64,000 nucleotides of DNA, taken from a bacterium (GTDB lineage Bacteria > Zhuqueibacterota > QNDG01 > CAYUAG01). The stretch's first letter is position 1, and each line of letters begins with the position of its first letter. Positions 1,569 to 59,141 of the stretch are shown piece by piece. The notes beneath the pieces were generated by a model. It did no database searches, was not told the origin of the DNA, and saw nothing but the letters and a program-made list of their open reading frames with translations. The translations under genes and the position numbers were made by a program. Where the stretch lies: NCBI GenBank assembly GCA_046483025.1, contig JAWODZ010000126.1, positions 11,981 to 75,980 on the forward strand, in the 5' to 3' direction.

Positions 1569-1747
1569 ATATCACTCTAAATAATAGATTTTTACACAAA
1601 ATACACATTCAATAACTTACCTGTCAGTTTACATAGGTTAATTATTCACCTGAAATAGTTAAACTGGGGAAGTAAAATGAATTGCTCCCTAAACAAAAAA
1701 AATATACTGAATAAATAAAAAATAGTCAAGTTTAATTTTTTAACTCA

Positions 1748-1776
1748 TTGACTCTTAGTTATAGATTGATTATATT
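1748..1776 (+). promoter_or_regulatory. sigma70-like promoter TTGACT-17-TATATT upstream of lepA; the -10 lies only about 8 nt from the ATG, so the mRNA may be leaderless
   Basis: ttgactcttagttatagattgattatatt. No SD sits between the -10 and the ATG at 1785. Confidence 0.45.
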
Positions 1777-1784
1777 ATCGAACT

Positions 1785-3581
1785 ATGTGGAAGAATAATA
1801 TACGAAATTTTAGTATCATTGCTCATATTGATCATGGCAAGTCTACTCTGGCAGACCGTCTCCTGGAGCATACCCATACTGTATCTCCTCAAACCATGAT
1901 GGATCAGGTTCTTGATGATATGGATTTGGAGCGGGAAAGAGGTATTACCATAAAATCTCATGCCATTACTATGTATTATACTCATTCCGATAGGGAAAAA
2001 TATACCCTGAATCTTATAGACACCCCCGGACATGTGGATTTTTCCTATGAAGTATCCCGCAGTCTGGCTGCCTGTGAAGGGGCTTTGGTGGTTGTTGATG
2101 CAAGCCAGGGAATTGAAGCCCAGACGGTGAGCAATATATACCTGGCTATGGAGAATGATCTTACCATGATCCCGGTTATAAATAAAATTGATCTCCCCGG
2201 GGCTCAAATAGATGAAACCAGAGAACAATTAAAAGAACTTATGGGAGTTTCTGATGAAGAAATTCTCCTGGTAAGTGCTAAGGAAGGCCGGGGTATCAAG
2301 AAATTACTTGATACTATTATTGAAAAGATTTCTGCTCCCAGGGGAGACAGTAAAGCGCCTCTGCGGGCCTTGATTTTTGATTCTGTCTATGATTACTATA
2401 GAGGAGTTATAACCTATATTAAAATTATTGATGGTTGTTTAAAAAAGGGGGATACAATTACATTTTTTTCCAATGGAAAGGAATTTACTGCTGAGGAGCT
2501 CGGATTACTTCGTTTACATCGCCAACCAACTGAAAATTTTAAAACCGGAGAAGTAGGCTATCTGATTGCTAATGTGAAGAATTTAAAAGATGCCAGAGTG
2601 GGGGATACCATAATGTTAGCTGATAATCCTCATCCAGAACCGCTTCCCGGATTTAAGAAATGTAAACCGATGGTGTTTTCGGGGATGTTCCCTGCTTCTG
2701 CAGAGGATCTGGAAGATTTGCGGAACAGTCTGGATCGGTTGCAGCTCAATGATGCTTCTTTAATTGTTGAGCCCGAAAATTCAGAAGCTCTGGGATTCGG
2801 TTTTAGAGTAGGATATCTGGGACTTCTTCATATGGAAATAATACAGGAAAGACTGGAGAGAGAATATGACCAGAATTTAATTACCACTATCCCCAATGTT
2901 GAATACCGTATTACTTTAAATAATGGAGAAAAAGTTTTAATTGATAATCCTGCTCAGTTCCCTGCAAATCATACTATAGAAAAAGTGGAAGAACCTTTTA
3001 TTGCCGGACAAATAATTGTACCAGCTGATTTCCAGGGAAATATTATGCAATTAGCCCAGCAAAGAAGAGGTGTTTATAAAAATACTATTTATCTTGATTC
3101 TCAACGGGTAACACTTACTTATGATTTACCCCTTTCAGAAATCATCTTTGATTTTTATGATAAGCTGAAAAGTATTTCTAAGGGGTATGCTTCTTTTGAC
3201 TATGAGGTGACTGGATTCAGAGAATCAGATATGGTACGAGTGGATATTTTAATAAATTTTGAACCAGTGGATGCGTTATCCATGATTGTTCATAAAGAGA
3301 AAGCATATACCTGGGGGAAGAAATTAACCGGAAAATTGCGGGAGCTCATCCCCCGGCAAATGTTTGAGGTAGCAATTCAGGCTGCAATCGGCAGTAAAAT
3401 TATTGCCCGGGATACAGTTAAGGCTTTAAGAAAAAACGTTACAGCCAAATGTTATGGCGGGGATATTAGCAGAAAGCGGAAACTTTTGGAAAAACAGAAA
3501 GAGGGCAAGAAGCGGATGAAGAATCTGGGGAAGATAGAAATTCCCCAGGAAGCATTTTTGGCTGTTTTACAGATAAAATAG
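1785..3581 (+). CDS. lepA: elongation factor 4 (LepA), translational GTPase
   Basis: 598 aa. G1 motif AHIDHGKSTL, DTPGHVDF and NKIDL motifs. Full-length LepA architecture including the C-terminal LepA_C segment. Confidence 0.95.
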   Translation: MWKNNIRNFSIIAHIDHGKSTLADRLLEHTHTVSPQTMMDQVLDDMDLERERGITIKSHAITMYYTHSDREKYTLNLIDTPGHVDFSYEVSRSLAACEGALVVVDASQGIEAQTVSNIYLAMENDLTMIPVINKIDLPGAQIDETREQLKELMGVSDEEILLVSAKEGRGIKKLLDTIIEKISAPRGDSKAPLRALIFDSVYDYYRGVITYIKIIDGCLKKGDTITFFSNGKEFTAEELGLLRLHRQPTENFKTGEVGYLIANVKNLKDARVGDTIMLADNPHPEPLPGFKKCKPMVFSGMFPASAEDLEDLRNSLDRLQLNDASLIVEPENSEALGFGFRVGYLGLLHMEIIQERLEREYDQNLITTIPNVEYRITLNNGEKVLIDNPAQFPANHTIEKVEEPFIAGQIIVPADFQGNIMQLAQQRRGVYKNTIYLDSQRVTLTYDLPLSEIIFDFYDKLKSISKGYASFDYEVTGFRESDMVRVDILINFEPVDALSMIVHKEKAYTWGKKLTGKLRELIPRQMFEVAIQAAIGSKIIARDTVKALRKNVTAKCYGGDISRKRKLLEKQKEGKKRMKNLGKIEIPQEAFLAVLQIK

Positions 3582-4584: not shown

Positions 4585-5688
4585 ATGGAAGGAATATACC
4601 TACACTTTCCTTTTTGTCAGTCTAAATGCAGCTACTGTGATTTTTATTCCATTGTTTATTCCGAAAAACTGGTTTCAGAATATGTTCAGGCTCTGAAAAC
4701 CGAGATTCGGCTTTATTCTGATTTTTTCACCAGCAATAAAACAATCGATACAATTTATTTGGGGGGAGGTACTCCTTCCCTTCTTAAAATCGGACAGATT
4801 AAAGATATATTACATCATTTGTATAATGTCTTCAACATCAGTGAATCTTCGGAAATAACCATTGAGATGAATCCCGGAAATACCTCCCTGAAAGATCTCT
4901 CTGCTTACAGAGAGATTGGTATTAACCGGATCAGTATCGGGGCTCAGTCTTTTAAAAAGAATGAGCTGGCCGTAATGAAACGGATCCACAATCCTGATGA
5001 AATTAAAACCATATGTTCCTCTGTCCGGAAAGCCGGTTTAGAGAATTTCAGTCTTGATCTTATTTTTGGTCTTCCCGGACAGAATCTTCAGGACTGGAAA
5101 TACACCTTATCTGAATCTTTTTCTTTACAGCCAAAACATATTTCAGCGTACAGTTTAACCTGGAGTTCTAAAACGCCTCTGGGCAGAAAGATAATCAAAG
5201 GAGATATCCCGGCTCCTCAGGAGGAAATGGTAGCTGAAATGTTTCTGTATGCAGATGATATGTTAGTAGAAAGCGGATATGAGCATTATGAAATTTCCAA
5301 TTATGCCTTGCCGGGATACCGGTGCAGACATAATGAGGGATACTGGAATGGACAATCCTATCTGGGGCTGGGCCCGTCTGCTCATTCTTTCAGAGAAAAT
5401 AAGCGGTTCAGGAATGTTTCTGATGTCAGAGAGTATATTTCACGACTTTCCCAATCTTTTCTCCCGGTTGAGGAAGAAGAAGTGCTGTCTTCAGAACAGA
5501 TACGAACAGAACGTATTGCAGTGGGGCTGCGGAGAAAAGAGGGGATTGACATCAGGAAAAACAATATCGATCTGTCTGAAGTTGAGGGTTTTGTGCAGAA
5601 GGGATTGGTAGTTCATGATGAAAATGTACTTACGTTAACTCCCCAGGGGATGCTTTTTGCGGATGAGGTGGCGTTGCGGGTGGTGTGA
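4585..5688 (+). CDS. hemW: radical SAM heme chaperone HemW / oxygen-independent coproporphyrinogen-III oxidase-like protein
   Basis: CxxxCxxC radical SAM motif CQSKCSYCDF, GGGTPS motif and a HemN_C-like C-terminus. Ends with a TGA stop at 5686-5688. Confidence 0.85.
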   Translation: MEGIYLHFPFCQSKCSYCDFYSIVYSEKLVSEYVQALKTEIRLYSDFFTSNKTIDTIYLGGGTPSLLKIGQIKDILHHLYNVFNISESSEITIEMNPGNTSLKDLSAYREIGINRISIGAQSFKKNELAVMKRIHNPDEIKTICSSVRKAGLENFSLDLIFGLPGQNLQDWKYTLSESFSLQPKHISAYSLTWSSKTPLGRKIIKGDIPAPQEEMVAEMFLYADDMLVESGYEHYEISNYALPGYRCRHNEGYWNGQSYLGLGPSAHSFRENKRFRNVSDVREYISRLSQSFLPVEEEEVLSSEQIRTERIAVGLRRKEGIDIRKNNIDLSEVEGFVQKGLVVHDENVLTLTPQGMLFADEVALRVV

Positions 5689-5922
5689 GTCTTATTTTTT
5701 ATATTGAGGGGAGTATGAAAATTATCGGAGGTTATTTATGGCCACAGGATTAGGATTTTCCTGTGGAACTCAGAAACCCTCCCCCGAGATCCTGAAATGA
5801 ATTCAGGATGACAACCCCATTCTGTATTATATTGAATCTTATTTTAAATATGTCATGCTGAGCCTTGTGCTGAACTTGGTTCAGTATTGTTCCAGAATCT
5901 CATGCAGTAATTAATTAGCCAA

Positions 5923-5969
5923 CCTCCCGAAGGTTTTGAATCCTCTTCATTCAGGACAAGTTCTTCGGG
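5923..5969. repeat. REP-like hairpin element (family C), copy 1: CCTCCCGAAGG...CTTCGGG stem
   Basis: Near-identical copy at 19595-19648 (cctcctgaaggtttcgaatccttcatt..caggacaggctcttcagggggg). It sits in a 565-bp non-coding gap with three more perfect hairpins (ccacagg/cctgtgg, atcctgaa/ttcaggat, ctgaac/gttcag). Confidence 0.6.
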
Positions 5970-6182
5970 AAATGTTGCCTTAACCCTGGGGCTGACCAAA
6001 AAATCCAAAAATAATGAAAACACAAGATCACAAAATAAATATAAATAATATATTACATCTGTATCCTCATCTTTTACTCTGTGAATTCTGTGGTTATTTT
6101 TTTCTTTTTGGACCGATCCACCAGAAGGAGTGAAACAGAGTTTAACACTTTAATACGTTACCAAAGGAGTAAAATTGCCCAC

Positions 6183-6211
6183 TTGACTTTAATAATTCGA
6201 TTGATTATAAT
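6183..6211 (+). promoter_or_regulatory. consensus sigma70 promoter TTGACT-17-TATAAT
   Basis: ttgactttaataattcgattgattataat, 44 bp upstream of the ATG at 6255. It shares the GATTGATTATA(A/T)T -10 context with the lepA promoter. Confidence 0.55.
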
Positions 6212-6254
6212 AGATTAACATGTAAAATTTTAAAGAAAAGAAAGGATACATTCT

Positions 6255-6569
6255 ATGGATCAAAATAAAGGCAGACAGCAGGTTAATGTTGAACTGGGTG
6301 ATAAGGAAGCTGAGGGAATTTATTCTAATTTAGTGTTGATAAGCCATTCCCCTGCAGAATTTGTTATGGATTTTACCCGTATGGTGCCTGGTGTACCTAA
6401 GGCCAAGGTTTATTCCCGTATAATAATGACACCCCAGCATATCAAGTCATTCTCCAAGGCATTGAATGATAATATAGAAAAATTCGAAAAGCAACATGGT
6501 GAAATTAAAGCTGCCGGAAATCAGGGGAAAAATATTGGATTTAAACCTGCAGGAACACAGCAGCAATAG
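6255..6569 (+). CDS. DUF3467 family protein
   Basis: 104 aa. Core YSNLVLISHSPAEFVMDFTRMVPGVPKAKVYSRIIMTPQHIKSFSKAL matches the DUF3467 signature seen in Bacteroidetes/Chlorobi. RBS aaagga upstream. Confidence 0.7.
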   Translation: MDQNKGRQQVNVELGDKEAEGIYSNLVLISHSPAEFVMDFTRMVPGVPKAKVYSRIIMTPQHIKSFSKALNDNIEKFEKQHGEIKAAGNQGKNIGFKPAGTQQQ

Positions 6570-8691: not shown

Positions 8692-8871
8692 TGAGTTTTT
8701 TTGACCTGGAAAAACTAAAAAGAGTCCACTAATTACACTAATTACACGAATTTCACTAAATAGAATTAATTAATATAATTTATGAGGTTGCCGTAAGTGG
8801 AGAAAACAGAAGTTATGGGATTAATAACTTCTGTTTAATCAAAAAAAATTGAATGGATTACTGTTCGCACT

Positions 8872-11376: not shown

Positions 11377-11529
11377 AGTACTTTTTATCGGAAAACAATA
11401 ATAAGTTTAATCTAAAAAGATATCTCCCACGAAATACACAAAACTCACTAAATAATTTATTTGATCTATATTTCGTGAATTCAGTGTCTTTTGTGGGAAT
11501 TACAGAATGAGCGTAAAAGTAGAACAATC

Positions 11530-16604: not shown

Positions 16605-16695
16605 ATGTGGAAGAGGGACAAAGGAAAGAGATGAAGGAGAATGGAGGAAGGAGAAGTGAATATGGAGAATGGAAAATGGCGAAAATCCTCCTGTT

Positions 16696-16719
16696 TCCAT
16701 TTTCCCGTTTCCGTTTTCC
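16696..16719. repeat. dispersed repeat family B (TCCATTTTCCCGTTTCCGTTTTCC), copy 1
   Basis: Near-identical 24-mer at 58877-58899. Here it is the pyrimidine arm of a long purine/pyrimidine hairpin spanning 16607-16722. Confidence 0.55.
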
Positions 16720-18598: not shown

Positions 18599-18798
18599 GG
18601 GGGTGTACTTATAGCCACGGATTTACACGGATAGACATGGATTTAGGTTAGTTAATAATTCTTGAAAAAAAATACCCATGGCAAAATTACCCATTTCCCT
18701 CCCTTGAAGGGAGGGAATAAAGGGAGGGTGAGATCGGAGCAGTCACTCTCCCCGAAAGAGTAGTTACCCTTCTTTCAGAAGGTTAGCTTCTGAATTGT
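18599..18798. repeat. about 200-bp dispersed intergenic repeat (family A), copy 1
   Basis: About 90% identical to 19645-19841. It contains three tandem CACGGATnnn units and a perfect hairpin CCCTCCC-ttgaa-GGGAGGG at 18697-18715. Confidence 0.75.
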
Positions 18799-18804
18799 GC
18801 ACCA

Positions 18805-18842
18805 GGTGGACTCCATCTCAGAGATGGAGTCCACCTTTGTGG
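18805..18842 (+). terminator. candidate intrinsic terminator (13-bp stem GGTGGACTCCATC / GATGGAGTCCACC, 5-nt loop, followed by TTTGTGG)
   Basis: Perfect inverted repeat unique to copy 1 of repeat A, downstream of the fused leuCD gene. The T-tract is weak. Confidence 0.45.
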
Positions 18843-18939
18843 TATATTTAGAAATCTGCTTGATTTATTTGAATTATTTCTATATATTAAAGTTGAACTT
18901 GAAGTTTAACTCTAATATGAAAATGAAAAGGAGCATACA

Positions 18940-19173
18940 TTGAAAAAAATTTCTATGTTACAATTGCGGAAAAATTCAAAACAAATAATCCAATGGGCCC
19001 GGCAGGGGAAAAAAATGATTTTAACCTATAGGGGAAATCCTGTTTTTCGTATTGAACCTATACAGGAAAATTCACCGGATGAAAACGATTTATTTTATAG
19101 TATAGATAAGCTTGCTGTGGATGAAGGGCAAAATATAACCAACCAGAAAATGGATACAATCATTTATGAATAA
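18940..19173 (+). CDS. type II antitoxin, Phd/YefM-like
   Basis: 77 aa. TTG start with RBS AAAGGAG 7 nt upstream. Overlaps the downstream PIN toxin by 8 nt (ATGAATAA). Confidence 0.65.
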   Translation: MKKISMLQLRKNSKQIIQWARQGKKMILTYRGNPVFRIEPIQENSPDENDLFYSIDKLAVDEGQNITNQKMDTIIYE

Positions 19174-19579
19174 AAATATATTTATTGATACCAGCGGTTA
19201 TTATGCTTTACTTATAAATCAGGATAATGCCCATAGAAAAGCAGTAGATATTTTACATGAAGCAGCTGAGGAGAAAATTCAATTTATAACTTCAGATTAT
19301 ATTCTTGATGAGATTGCTACCTTACTTCAATTTCGAGGAGTCGGGCACTTACTTCCTGAATTTTTTAAAAGAGTTTTCAACTCTCAGGCGTGTAGAATTG
19401 AATGGATGGACGAAGAACTGTTTCAGCAAACTAAATTATTTTTTTTCAAAAATAGTGATCATAAATATTCATTCACGGATTGTTTTAGTTTTATATTGAT
19501 GCAAAGAAACGGATTGGAAAAAGCATTGACCAAAGATCATCATTTCCGGGAAGCTGGATTTATTTCTCTTTTGAGTTAA
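19166..19579 (+). CDS. vapC: type II toxin VapC (PIN domain ribonuclease)
   Basis: 137 aa. N-terminal IFIDTSGYYALL with Asp7, and later D/E acidic residues typical of the PIN fold. Confidence 0.75.
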   Translation: MNKNIFIDTSGYYALLINQDNAHRKAVDILHEAAEEKIQFITSDYILDEIATLLQFRGVGHLLPEFFKRVFNSQACRIEWMDEELFQQTKLFFFKNSDHKYSFTDCFSFILMQRNGLEKALTKDHHFREAGFISLLS

Positions 19580-19594
19580 TTTTCAGTGCAAAAA

Positions 19595-19648
19595 CCTCCT
19601 GAAGGTTTCGAATCCTTCATTTCATTCAGGACAGGCTCTTCAGGGGGG
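19595..19648. repeat. REP-like hairpin element (family C), copy 2, directly abutting repeat A copy 2
   Basis: cctcctgaaggtttcgaatccttcatttcattcaggacaggctcttcagggggg versus the copy at 5923-5969. Confidence 0.6.
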
Positions 19649-19841
19649 TGTACTTTTAGCCACGGATTTACACGGATAGACACGGATTTGGGTTGGTAAA
19701 TAACTCTTGAAAAAATTATTCATTGCAAATCACCCATTTCCCTCCCTCGAAGGGAGGAAATAAAGGGAGGGTGAGATCTGAGCAGTCACTCTCCCCGAAA
19801 GTGAAGCTACCCTTCTCTCATAAGGTTAGCTTCTGAATTGT
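19645..19841. repeat. about 200-bp dispersed intergenic repeat (family A), copy 2
   Basis: Aligned with 18599-18798 over its whole length: same CACGGAT triplet and same CCCTCCC..GGGAGG hairpin. Confidence 0.75.
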
Positions 19842-19926
19842 CCACCTAAACTTAAAAAAAATTTATAAAAATTGCTGAAAAATTTGTATCTTTATGATAA
19901 AAGGTTATTAATTAAAAAAGGCATAT

Positions 19927-21677: not shown

Positions 21678-21785
21678 GTTCGGTTAAGGTTCAGGGTTCA
21701 AAGGTTCAGAGTTCAGGGTTGGAAGGTTAATAATCAACATATATCCTGAATTTTAAACCCGGAACTCAGAACTCTGAAATTTGAA
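21677..21785. repeat. short tandem repeat (GGTTCAG-type heptamers) plus complementary CTGAA-rich arm forming an imperfect long hairpin
   Basis: aggttcggttaaggttcagggttcaaaggttcagagttcagggttgg, then ...cctgaattttaaacccggaactcagaactctgaaatttgaa. TTCAGAGTTC pairs with GAACTCTGAA. Confidence 0.6.
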
Positions 21786-21842
21786 TTTAAAAAACCTAAG
21801 CAGTTTCTAGTAATCAGATAAACTTAGTAATTTTACAATGAG

Positions 21843-34507: not shown

Positions 34508-34605
34508 CCAACCTGAATAATTTAGGCTGGATTTTTTAACCTTCCATCCATTTTACAAGTATTTTTTATTTACAGATTAACATCTCATACTTTTTTTCTG
34601 TGAAA

Positions 34606-34622
34606 ATAGGGAATTTCCCTAT
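34606..34622. promoter_or_regulatory. 17-bp perfect palindrome ATAGGGAA-T-TTCCCTAT, 34 bp upstream of the second regulator gene
   Basis: Seen directly: 8-bp arms around a central T. Size and symmetry fit a LuxR/GerE-type dimer operator. Confidence 0.5.
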
Positions 34623-34655
34623 TGTATCTCTCTCCCAATATTTTTTTCTTAGGTT

Positions 34656-46880: not shown

Positions 46881-47084
46881 ATGTTCGGAGGAATGATTAT
46901 TATCTGGATTTTTATAGTTGTAGGAGTTATCTGGTTGATCAGATATTTGACTGAACAAAAAAATATGAAAAATAATGAAATGGAAAAAGAAACCAGCGCC
47001 CTGGATATATTGAAAATACAATATGCCAAGGGTGAGATCAACAGAGAAGAGTTCAAGAAACGTAAAAAAGATTTAGAAAATTAA
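46881..47084 (+). CDS. SHOCT-domain small membrane protein (copy 1)
   Basis: One TM, then ALDILKIQYAKGEINREEFKKRKKDL, the SHOCT signature. Confidence 0.7.
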   Translation: MFGGMIIIWIFIVVGVIWLIRYLTEQKNMKNNEMEKETSALDILKIQYAKGEINREEFKKRKKDLEN

Positions 47085-47088
47085 AAAA

Positions 47089-47340
47089 TTGAAAGGAGTG
47101 AAAATTATGCATGACTGGGGAATGATGAACTGGGGCTGGGGCGGTATGATTGTTCAATTGCTTTTCTGGATAGTTATTATTGTTGCTATTATCTGGGCAA
47201 TCAGGCATTTTACCGGACCTGGTCGAAGTGATGGATCTGCTTCCGGCAGTGAATCGGCTCTGGATGTACTGAAAAAACGTTACGCCAGCGGAGAGATCGA
47301 CAAACAAGAATTTGAAGAAAAGAAAAGGGATATTTTATGA
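47089..47340 (+). CDS. SHOCT-domain small membrane protein (copy 2)
   Basis: W/G-rich N-terminus, one TM, ALDVLKKRYASGEIDKQEFEEKKRDIL. An alternative start at 47107 is possible. Confidence 0.7.
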   Translation: MKGVKIMHDWGMMNWGWGGMIVQLLFWIVIIVAIIWAIRHFTGPGRSDGSASGSESALDVLKKRYASGEIDKQEFEEKKRDIL

Positions 47341-47732
47341 AAAAAACTTCATATGCATTCACCAAAACAGTAAATAGAGATTTTGACCAAACCATTCAGA
47401 AACTTACGGAAGAATTGAAAAAGGAGGGTTTTGGTATTCTGACTGAGATTGATGTTCAGGCTACTCTTAAGAAAAAACTGGATGTTGATTTCAGGCCTTA
47501 CAAGATTCTGGGTGCTTGTAATCCTTCCTTTGCCTATAAAGCCTTACAGGCGGAAGAACAGATCGCATTAATGCTGCCCTGTAATGTTATTGTGTATGTG
47601 AATGAAGAGAAAGAAACCGTAGTCGCAGCTATTGATCCGGAGGCCTCAATGACGGCAATTGATAATCCTGAATTACAGGGAATCAATAAAGAAGTTCAGA
47701 CCAAGCTCAGATCAGTGATTGAGCGATGTTGA
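47337..47732 (+). CDS. DUF302 domain protein
   Basis: 131 aa. GFGILTEIDVQATLKKKLDV...YKILGACNP is the DUF302 core. Confidence 0.7.
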   Translation: MKKTSYAFTKTVNRDFDQTIQKLTEELKKEGFGILTEIDVQATLKKKLDVDFRPYKILGACNPSFAYKALQAEEQIALMLPCNVIVYVNEEKETVVAAIDPEASMTAIDNPELQGINKEVQTKLRSVIERC

Positions 47733-47779
47733 GAGAATAAGAAAAGATTAAAAAATTTTTGTAAGGAGGTGAACGAATT

Positions 47780-48016
47780 ATGCACGGATGGGAGTTTATG
47801 CACTGGGGCTGGTTTGGTTTTATTGTGCAGATTATTTTCTGGGTAGCAATCATACTGCTTATAGTATGGGTGGCAAAGAAAGTCACAGAGTCAGGTTCCG
47901 GAGATCGATCTTCTTCTGCGGGAGAATCAGCCCTGGACATTTTGAAAAAAAGATATGCCAAGGGAGAGATTGACAAAGATGAGTATGAAAAAAAGAAAAA
48001 GGACTTGACTGCATGA
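47780..48016 (+). CDS. SHOCT-domain small membrane protein (copy 3)
   Basis: MHGWEFMHWGW.. TM, then ALDILKKRYAKGEIDKDEYEKKKKDL. Confidence 0.7.
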   Translation: MHGWEFMHWGWFGFIVQIIFWVAIILLIVWVAKKVTESGSGDRSSSAGESALDILKKRYAKGEIDKDEYEKKKKDLTA

Positions 48017-48781: not shown

Positions 48782-48983
48782 AATTCGGTTAGAGTTGGAG
48801 GTTGTTATATAAGTTTACAAAAATGAAACCACAGGATACACAGAGAAAATAAAGAAGTTAAAAAGTATATGAATTAGTAATCCCCTTATTTTATTTTTTG
48901 CTCTGTGTATTCTTTATGGTTTTTTGTCATCCTTTAGTTTGTAAATCAATGTTAATGTAAAATTCGATAATAAAATACTGAAT

Positions 48984-58741: not shown

Positions 58742-58876
58742 TTTCTAAAACACCCTCTCTTTTATCTCTCCCTTCGGCGAGCTCAGGAAAGGCCCTCAAG
58801 GGGGCATTCGTATTACTATTTCTTTCCCCTTGAGGGGAGATGTCCGCTGAAGGCGGACAGAGGGGTGTTTTTCCCT

Positions 58877-58899
58877 CCATTTTCCGTTACCCCGTTTCC
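58877..58899. repeat. dispersed repeat family B, copy 2, inside a 400-bp structured intergenic region
   Basis: tccattttccgttaccccgtttcc versus 16696-16719. Confidence 0.55.
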
Positions 58900-58977
58900 T
58901 TCCCCTAAACAGCGTCAACTTCAGAGTACTGTCTTCCGGCCTCTGAACGCTAATCCTCTCACGTTCTAATGCTCTCA

Positions 58978-59022
58978 GGTTCTTAAGTTCTTGTATCTTG
59001 ATTCTTGAGTCTTGAGTCTTCC
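58978..59022. repeat. tandem 7-8-bp repeat (TCTTGAG-like, 6 units)
   Basis: ttcttaagttcttgtatcttgattcttgagtcttgagtcttcc. Confidence 0.6.
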
Positions 59023-59141
59023 TTTTTCCATATCAGACTTTCTGAAGTCAATTATCAGAAACTTCCTGATTGAATTTTTCTTTTAAAATCAATACTTATA
59101 AGTATACTATAGGTTATTGATAAAAAGAAAATGGAAAAGAT

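Follow-up and report, generated by a model that had tools for sequence, protein, structure and literature searches.

The hairpin-rich spacer between hemW and a DUF3467 gene is an ordinary hypervariable inter-operon spacer at a synteny breakpoint

Locus and flanking genes

The spacer described here occupies positions 5689-6254 (565 bases) of the window, by which we mean the whole 64 kb stretch of DNA that was analysed, and separates hemW from a DUF3467 gene. The identities proposed for the two neighbours from the letters of the DNA were borne out by Pfam: hemW (4585-5688, plus strand), encoding a radical-SAM heme chaperone, matched Radical_SAM and HemN_C, and the DUF3467 gene (6255-6569, plus strand) matched PF11950. 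hemW is the final gene of a conserved SMC(-)/lepA/lepB/hemW block, which is kept in the related loci L002, L004 and L006, and the DUF3467 gene opens a second block that is conserved as far as an aconitase gene. Plasmid and phage searches with the spacer gave no similarity.

Hairpins of the spacer

The hairpins listed in the original prediction are real and were recovered by inverted-repeat search and by folding at most about 2 nt from the positions first given. Hairpin 1, CCACAGGA-n9-TCCTGTGG, was located by inverted-repeat search at 5742-5766 (plus strand) and is enclosed by a long-range stem on the same strand (5704-5787; GAGGGGAG/CUCCCC and GGUU/AACC, inverted repeats I8 and I25); the fold of 5700-5812 has an energy of -36.9 kcal/mol (z = -2.85). 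Hairpin 2, ATCCTGAA-n5-TTCAGGAT, was found by both inverted-repeat search and folding at 5789-5809 (plus strand) and has no U-tract after it. Hairpin 3 (5867-5887, plus strand; -9.2 kcal/mol, z = -2.2) has the core CTGAAC-ttg-GTTCAG at 5870-5884, 2 nt from its originally reported position, and a similarity search gave no counterpart of it elsewhere. A fourth hairpin, copy 1 of the element called family C, is treated below. A terminator scan made a single weak call at the hairpins, at 5804-5824. Like intrinsic terminators, these stem-loops lie 3' of the last gene of an operon, but hairpins 1-3 and family C copy 1 differ from such terminators in lacking a U-tract. If these shorter GC-containing hairpins act at all, they are probably structures that protect RNA 3' ends.

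Apart from family C, the hairpins are single-copy and mutually unrelated in sequence, so that no one repeat family forms a cluster here. The 11-mer GGAACTCAGAA had been pointed out as a motif recurring near 21762. A second copy does exist at 21761, within the 3' arm of a different hairpin, but the recurrence is at chance level (72 recurring 11-mers in the spacer versus 58 +/- 18.5 in random 566-nt segments) and the motif was rejected. Three further candidates were discarded. A tRNA-derived fragment suggested by GGTTTCGAATCC was set aside, as ARAGORN found no tRNA or tmRNA in the window and the loop has 8 nt, not 7; a likeness of TTAACCNTGGGG to L007 is of a kind expected about once by chance (our own estimate); and the G-box TGGGGCTGAC is not above chance in the window.

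With loops of 3-30 nt allowed, the spacer has three perfect stems of 8 bp or more, compared with 0.48 expected from dinucleotide shuffles (P = 0.0145), and the same count is found in 3% of sliding 566-nt windows across the 64 kb. For stems of at least 7 bp with loops of up to 12 nt the count is two against 0.64 expected (P = 0.14), the whole window containing 80 of them (1.25 per kb). Folding of the whole spacer, which had been suggested as a check, gave minimum free energies with z = -2.08 (plus strand) and -1.66 (minus strand), but spacers elsewhere in the window have more structure, several with z values from -5 to -6.5 (18599-19165, 34508-34655 and 58742-59141 among them). The stems that led to the description of the spacer as packed with hairpins are thus genuine, but their excess over chance is modest.

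Family C

In family C copy 1 (5921-5970, plus strand) the outer stem, UCCCGAAGG/UCUUCGGGA, is of 9 bp and is extended inwards by UCCU/AGGA; the arms TCCCGAAG...CTTCGGGA lie at 5925-5932 and 5963-5970. The predicted recurrence of this element was confirmed. Copy 2 (19593-19644, plus strand) starts 14 nt past the vapC stop codon and is 85% identical to copy 1 over 52 nt (E = 2e-7), the sole significant repeat of any part of the spacer within the window. Both copies adopt the same hairpin (-20.3 kcal/mol, z = -3.4 for copy 1; -20.8 kcal/mol, z = -2.6 for copy 2). RNAalifold gave 15 pairs with two compensatory changes (C-G to U-A and U-A to C-G), one wobble change and no broken pair, as counted over two copies only, a thin basis. 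The element has been duplicated, with compensatory changes that preserve its structure.

The inner hairpin of copy 2, TGAAGG n8 CCTTCA, starts about 20 nt past the vapC stop codon; it is flanked on both sides by A- and T-runs and was flagged on both strands by the terminator scan. By inspection it looks like an intrinsic terminator, with a stem-loop and U-tract. Family C would accordingly be a low-copy duplicated hairpin of terminator type, its pairing retained through compensatory substitutions.

A covariance model was built from the two copies and used to search 285 kb comprising the window and relatives; copy 1 scores 80.9 bits with it. The model matched the two copies in the window, L095 with an identical sequence and, in L002 (11585-11627), a hairpin of simpler build, and nothing else. 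This L002 hairpin, AACCTCCCGAAGGTT tgg AACCTTCGGGAGGTT, has the outer stem but lacks the inner 28 nt. No further copy was found by blastn over 986 kb of fetched loci, and neither about 220 kb from close relatives nor 814 kb from distant loci contained a further full copy; exact-pattern scans of public genome, metagenome and viral collections gave 0 matches each.

Copy 2 lies beside a Phd/YefM-PIN (VapC) toxin-antitoxin pair (18940-19579). In the aconitase-leuC spacer (18599-19846) this pair is flanked by direct repeats of 205 nt that are 92% identical to each other (18599-18803 and 19644-19846). This insertion is absent from the relative L014, and no remnants of the Phd/VapC cassette were found in the hemW-DUF3467 spacer. 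The 205-nt repeat carries CCCTCCC ttgaa GGGAGGG aataaa GGGAGGG (18697-18728 and 19741-19770) upstream of a leuC-like gene, that is, one C-strand with two candidate G-strand partners. Rfam gave no match to this motif, which is possibly an alternative-pairing leader. The palindromes of integron attC sites end in the R''/R' core sites RYYYAAC ... GTTRRRY. As copy 2 follows a toxin-antitoxin cassette, family C was considered as an attC site, but on inspection neither copy has a 3' GTTRRRY or a 5' RYYYAAC. An attC-like or IS200/IS605-like origin of the toxin-antitoxin insertion was likewise rejected on inspection, the core sites being absent and the two end hairpins unrelated.

The hairpins had also been proposed to form a REP/BIME-like cluster. 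REP systems have an associated RAYT (HUH Y1 transposase) gene flanked by REPs. No RAYT was found in the window by tblastn with the RAYT-like protein of the related locus L015. In L015 itself, a RAYT-like HUH gene (1426-2025, motif HNHYHIM, within 1228-2100) is flanked by three REPs with the core GTTTCACTCCAT at 1270, 1458 and 2089. This gene and its REPs occupy the aconitase-leuC spacer, where the window has Phd/VapC and family C copy 2 (LeuC identity 78%), but the L015 REPs are unrelated in sequence to family C. Family C resembles REPs in being an extragenic imperfect palindrome present in more than one copy, both outside Pfam-supported genes and in spacers that vary between relatives. REPs are described as high-copy elements, usually with more than 100 copies per genome (Nunvar et al. 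2010, PMC2817692), and REP, BIME and REPIN elements as alternating in orientation at regular spacing or forming inverted pairs (Nunvar et al. 2010, PMC2817692; Bertels and Rainey 2011, PMC3116915). Family C differs in having two copies in the 64 kb window, about 50 nt in length and with an inner extension; both are solitary and on the plus strand, which leaves no REPIN or BIME arrangement and no alternating array. A genome-wide, RAYT-moved family of palindromes in permissive spacers, comprising family C and perhaps the other hairpins, would fit the placement of the two copies at lineage-specific junctions (copy 1 at the junction of the two gene blocks, copy 2 at the edge of the toxin-antitoxin insertion absent from relatives), the simpler version in L002, the RAYT-like gene and REPs found in L015 in the very spacer of copy 2, and the tendency of assemblies to break in these spacers. 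The empty searches for further copies, the solitary arrangement, the lack of a RAYT in the window, the unrelated REPs of L015 and the unrelated single-copy sequences of the other hairpins make such a family distinctly unlikely, and the proposed cluster was not upheld in the sequence available.

Coding potential

The spacer had been described as having no ORF. It contains no real gene, but mechanical ORFs of 56 aa (minus strand) and 45 aa (plus strand) are present. There is also a 20-codon ORF, MATGLGFSCGTQKPSPEILK (5738-5800, plus strand), with GGAGG 6 nt upstream of its ATG. A small protein gene might be sought in the latter, the GGAGG serving as its Shine-Dalgarno sequence, or in the 56-aa ORF, which runs through family C; in both family C copies the two strands have open frames, and the indel that distinguishes the copies is 3 nt long. 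Pfam gave no match to the ORFs of the spacer. A search for homologues of the 56-aa ORF among 1.84 billion representative proteins returned one match, a spurious one caused by a tandem-repeat artefact. The substitutions between the family C copies show no significant 3-nt phase, with 5/9 in one phase (alignment A1, our own count). In the alignment with L002, the GGAGGTT that precedes the 20-codon ORF falls opposite the decayed arm CGGGAGGTT of a palindrome and is thus a relic of a palindrome arm, for which reason this ORF was judged spurious; on inspection its peptide is not conserved in the aligned L002 sequence. With neither a Pfam match nor homologues, a coding role of family C and the small ORFs was rejected and is extremely improbable.

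Long AT-rich inverted repeat

A feature absent from the hairpins originally listed is located just 5' of the DUF3467 promoter. It consists of a TGGGGCTGACCAAAAA box followed by an imperfect AT-rich inverted repeat of about 120 nt (5979-6125 in all; inverted repeats I1-I3). The inverted repeat spans 5994-6112, with arms made up of short words in tandem, CACAAGATCACAAAA/TCTGTGAATTCTGTGG. There is an A-tract before it, and its 3' arm is followed by TTATTTTTTTCTTTTT (6093-6109). The minus strand gives the stronger fold (-34.4 kcal/mol, z = -2.75), whereas that of the plus strand (-23.9 kcal/mol, z = -1.6) is only marginally better than shuffles. By inspection the long hairpin has the stem-loop and U-tract of an intrinsic terminator. 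It shares with that class its place 3' of the last gene of the operon and its flanking A- and T-tracts, as the inner hairpin of family C copy 2 does after the vapC stop codon, but differs in its length of about 120 nt, its AT-richness, its imperfect pairing and its short tandem words. The long inverted repeat appears to be the best terminator candidate in the spacer, and a bidirectional-looking one.

Similar hairpins with arms of tandem words were observed in other spacers of the window at 8727-8759, 11425-11498, 16633-16719, 18616-18645, 19661-19689, 21682-21790, 48825-48925 (followed by TTTTTTG) and 58950-59020, and in the relatives L006 (9840-9925), L002 (11165-11305), L007 (9700-9830) and L014 (5660-5685). 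The words are short and often CAC-initial, with a period of about 9-10 nt. These hairpins are intergenic, several of them shortly past a stop codon, and between orthologous sites the words change while the architecture stays. They probably represent the way in which terminators are built in this lineage.

Promoter of the DUF3467 operon

The DUF3467 end of the spacer is a conserved block (6164-6254, plus strand) holding a -35 box TTGACT (6183-6188), a 17-nt spacer, a -10 box TATAAT (6206-6211), a short 5' UTR and a Shine-Dalgarno sequence AAAGGA (6241-6246) placed 8 nt 5' of the ATG. The promoter lies about 45 nt 5' of the start codon. The consensus promoter predicted at 6183-6211 held up well: it was the best sigma-70 match of the promoter scan in the first 20 kb (11/12 positions), and the block is identical at 79/89 positions to L007 (89%), at 70/88 to L010 (80%) and at 71/91 to L012 (78%). 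Upstream of 6164 the identity to the same three loci falls to 43-47%, which is alignment noise. The promoter is conserved in all relatives examined (L007-L012, L093 and L094), and two JGI contigs whose upstream genes are different contain the exact pattern as well. Conservation of the block that holds TTGACT-17-TATAAT indicates that the promoter is real and belongs to the DUF3467 operon. Its hexamers have sigma-70 spacing within 16-18 nt, and it resembles the TTGACA-17-TATAAT consensus in conserved surroundings, with nothing unusual about it.

The original prediction held that the spacer insulates lepA-lepB-hemW from this promoter. The spacer does separate that unit from a real promoter, and its description as an insulating spacer plus a promoter is reasonable; termination and insulation by it are a conditional reading of sequence features.

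Comparison with relatives

Contigs with HemW homologues of 72-76% identity have the same SMC(-)-lepA-lepB-hemW order. In L002, L004 and L006 hemW is followed by a spacer of 447-1128 nt and then by a convergent (minus-strand) yjbQ-PBP-phosphoesterase block; none of these yjbQ-side downstream genes occurs within the window. Contigs with DUF3467 homologues of 84-98% identity share the downstream gene order, which runs OMP-like, aldehyde dehydrogenase, aminotransferase, TraB, LexA-like, DinB, rotamase, HD and aconitase. This DUF3467-aconitase block is common to L007, L010, L011, L012 and L093. The 5' neighbour of DUF3467 is variable: glycosyltransferases in L007, short-chain dehydrogenase fragments in L010, an unannotated ORF in L093 and L094 and an ilvD-type fragment in L012. 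In the MAG GCA_964515295.1 the hemW and DUF3467 blocks are on separate contigs with other neighbours. The break in synteny is plain from these gene orders: since the two blocks are separate in every relative available, the spacer is the junction of two conserved blocks.

Conservation of the spacer was found on the DUF3467 side only (6164-6254). On the hemW side nothing was alignable across relatives beyond short modules, and those with L002 only. The divergent SMC-lepA spacer (window 1569-1790), about 4 kb 5' of the hemW spacer and carrying TTGACT-17-TATATT upstream of lepA, served as a yardstick for a constrained spacer at this evolutionary distance; its mean column identity is 83% across four lineages. 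As the hemW spacer cannot be aligned where the SMC-lepA spacer can, it is fast-evolving and rearranging and holds no conserved RNA gene.

These data bear on the multi-hairpin noncoding RNA that had been proposed. A structured small RNA, or a long structured hemW 3' UTR with a regulatory role, would be in keeping with the folds of 5700-5812 and of family C given above, with the compensatory changes in family C and with a GC content of 0.42-0.54 in parts of 5739-5990 versus 0.14-0.30 in the AT-rich parts of the spacer. Rfam 15 at the gathering score, however, gave no match in the window; at a permissive threshold 5500-6400 gave chance-level matches only (E of 2.5-9), the homologous spacers of the relatives gave nothing, and the Rfam matches obtained in all were three tRNAs outside the spacers of interest. 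Apart from the DUF3467 promoter, the promoter scan turned up no promoter-like site that precedes the structures. Hairpin 1 is missing from L002, whose spacer is the only one with partial homology, spacers elsewhere in this genome have more structure, and no structure is conserved in the relatives whose SMC-lepA spacer aligns so well. The proposed RNA thus failed to find support and is quite improbable.

Homology of the spacer to that of L002 rests on short modules. The 16-mer TGGGGCTGACYAAAAA together with the long inverted repeat matched one of the 94 fetched loci, namely L002, 3' of hemW, and 5979-6125 is orthologous to L002 11165-11320 (alignment A4; local alignments with z of 4.5-4.7). The 15-mer AACCTCCCGAAGGTT is common to both spacers. 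A CCCGA-ATCCTG...CAGGATGA hairpin of L002 (11676-11706) resembles hairpin 2, and 5712-5852 aligns weakly but colinearly with L002 11601-11747, the yjbQ-proximal end of that spacer (z = 3.6, equalled by 1/200 shuffles). The modules are ordered word hairpin, palindrome, ATCCTG in L002 and ATCCTG, family C, word hairpin here, a difference that points to internal rearrangement.

The convergent hemW-yjbQ spacer of the relatives is unusually long, at 447-1128 nt. A motif GATCAAAGGTCGCTAATCGTTAATCC was observed in it in L002 (10678-10706), L004 (11143-11167) and L006 (9667-9738, where it forms a 58-nt inverted repeat), and L004 and L006 share a AACCGCAG...CTGCGGTT hairpin near yjbQ. Elsewhere in the window, a 77-nt direct repeat is present within 46998-48006 in three copies that have diverged (69-75%) and are spaced at 259 and 673 nt; it looks like a repeated coding segment.

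Contiguity of the junction

Run SRR31818008 supplied two independent contigs, belonging to the same population, that match the window exactly where they cover it. L095 ends at 6030 and L001 starts at 6132, so that the 101 nt linking the two blocks (6031-6131) are supported by the MAG contig only. Assemblies break repeatedly in these spacers: L003 and L005 end 38 and 29 nt past hemW, the starts of L009 and L011 lie 124 and 29 nt 5' of DUF3467, and L013 starts 144 nt before leuC.

The MAG contig may have mis-joined the hemW and DUF3467 blocks within the AT-rich inverted repeat, which would make the spacer a chimera of two spacers. Such an error would account for the breaks in the SRR31818008 Logan contigs, for a hemW-DUF3467 adjacency seen in no relative and for the separate placement of the blocks in GCA_964515295.1. 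The homology to the hemW spacer of L002, however, continues through the whole long hairpin to about 6120, so any false join would fall within 6120-6163 and not at the break at 6030. Unitig-type contigs, moreover, break for many reasons, such as low coverage of AT-rich sequence or strain variants, and since the 5' neighbour of DUF3467 varies among relatives, a new neighbour here is unsurprising. We regard a mis-join as unlikely; the junction nevertheless calls for read-level confirmation.

Discussion

On balance we lean towards reading the spacer as a composite, lineage-specific one that joins two conserved blocks, not as a dedicated RNA gene or repeat cluster. Positions 5689 to about 6125 would derive from a hypervariable spacer that lay between hemW and a convergent yjbQ, a descent to which the modules shared with L002 point. 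The ancestral modules retained would be the AACCTCCCGAAGGTT palindromes, decayed and elaborated, the ATCCTG hairpin, and the G-box with the long AT-rich inverted repeat. In the ancestral convergent hemW/yjbQ spacer the long inverted repeat would have been a bidirectional operon-end terminator, and it would now close the lepA-lepB-hemW unit, about 70 nt short of the DUF3467 -35 box. The conserved block 6164-6254, with promoter, 5' UTR and ribosome-binding site, travels with the DUF3467 operon.

A bolder proposal sees in family C and the word hairpins a new, lineage-specific kind of palindromic element, small and mobile or recombinogenic, which would mark rearrangements and promote them. It draws on the position of both family C copies at lineage-specific junctions and on the relative with a RAYT and REPs in the spacer of copy 2, and we consider it quite doubtful.

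As a composite spacer, the hairpin-rich region is real but ordinary, a hypervariable inter-operon spacer at a synteny breakpoint, and has little significance beyond annotation. In this uncultivated lineage, with candidate division KSB1 MAGs as its closest named relatives, the promoter of the DUF3467 operon is now defined and the likely end of the lepA-lepB-hemW unit located, and the spacers 3' of hemW and 5' of DUF3467 emerge as recurrent synteny breakpoints.
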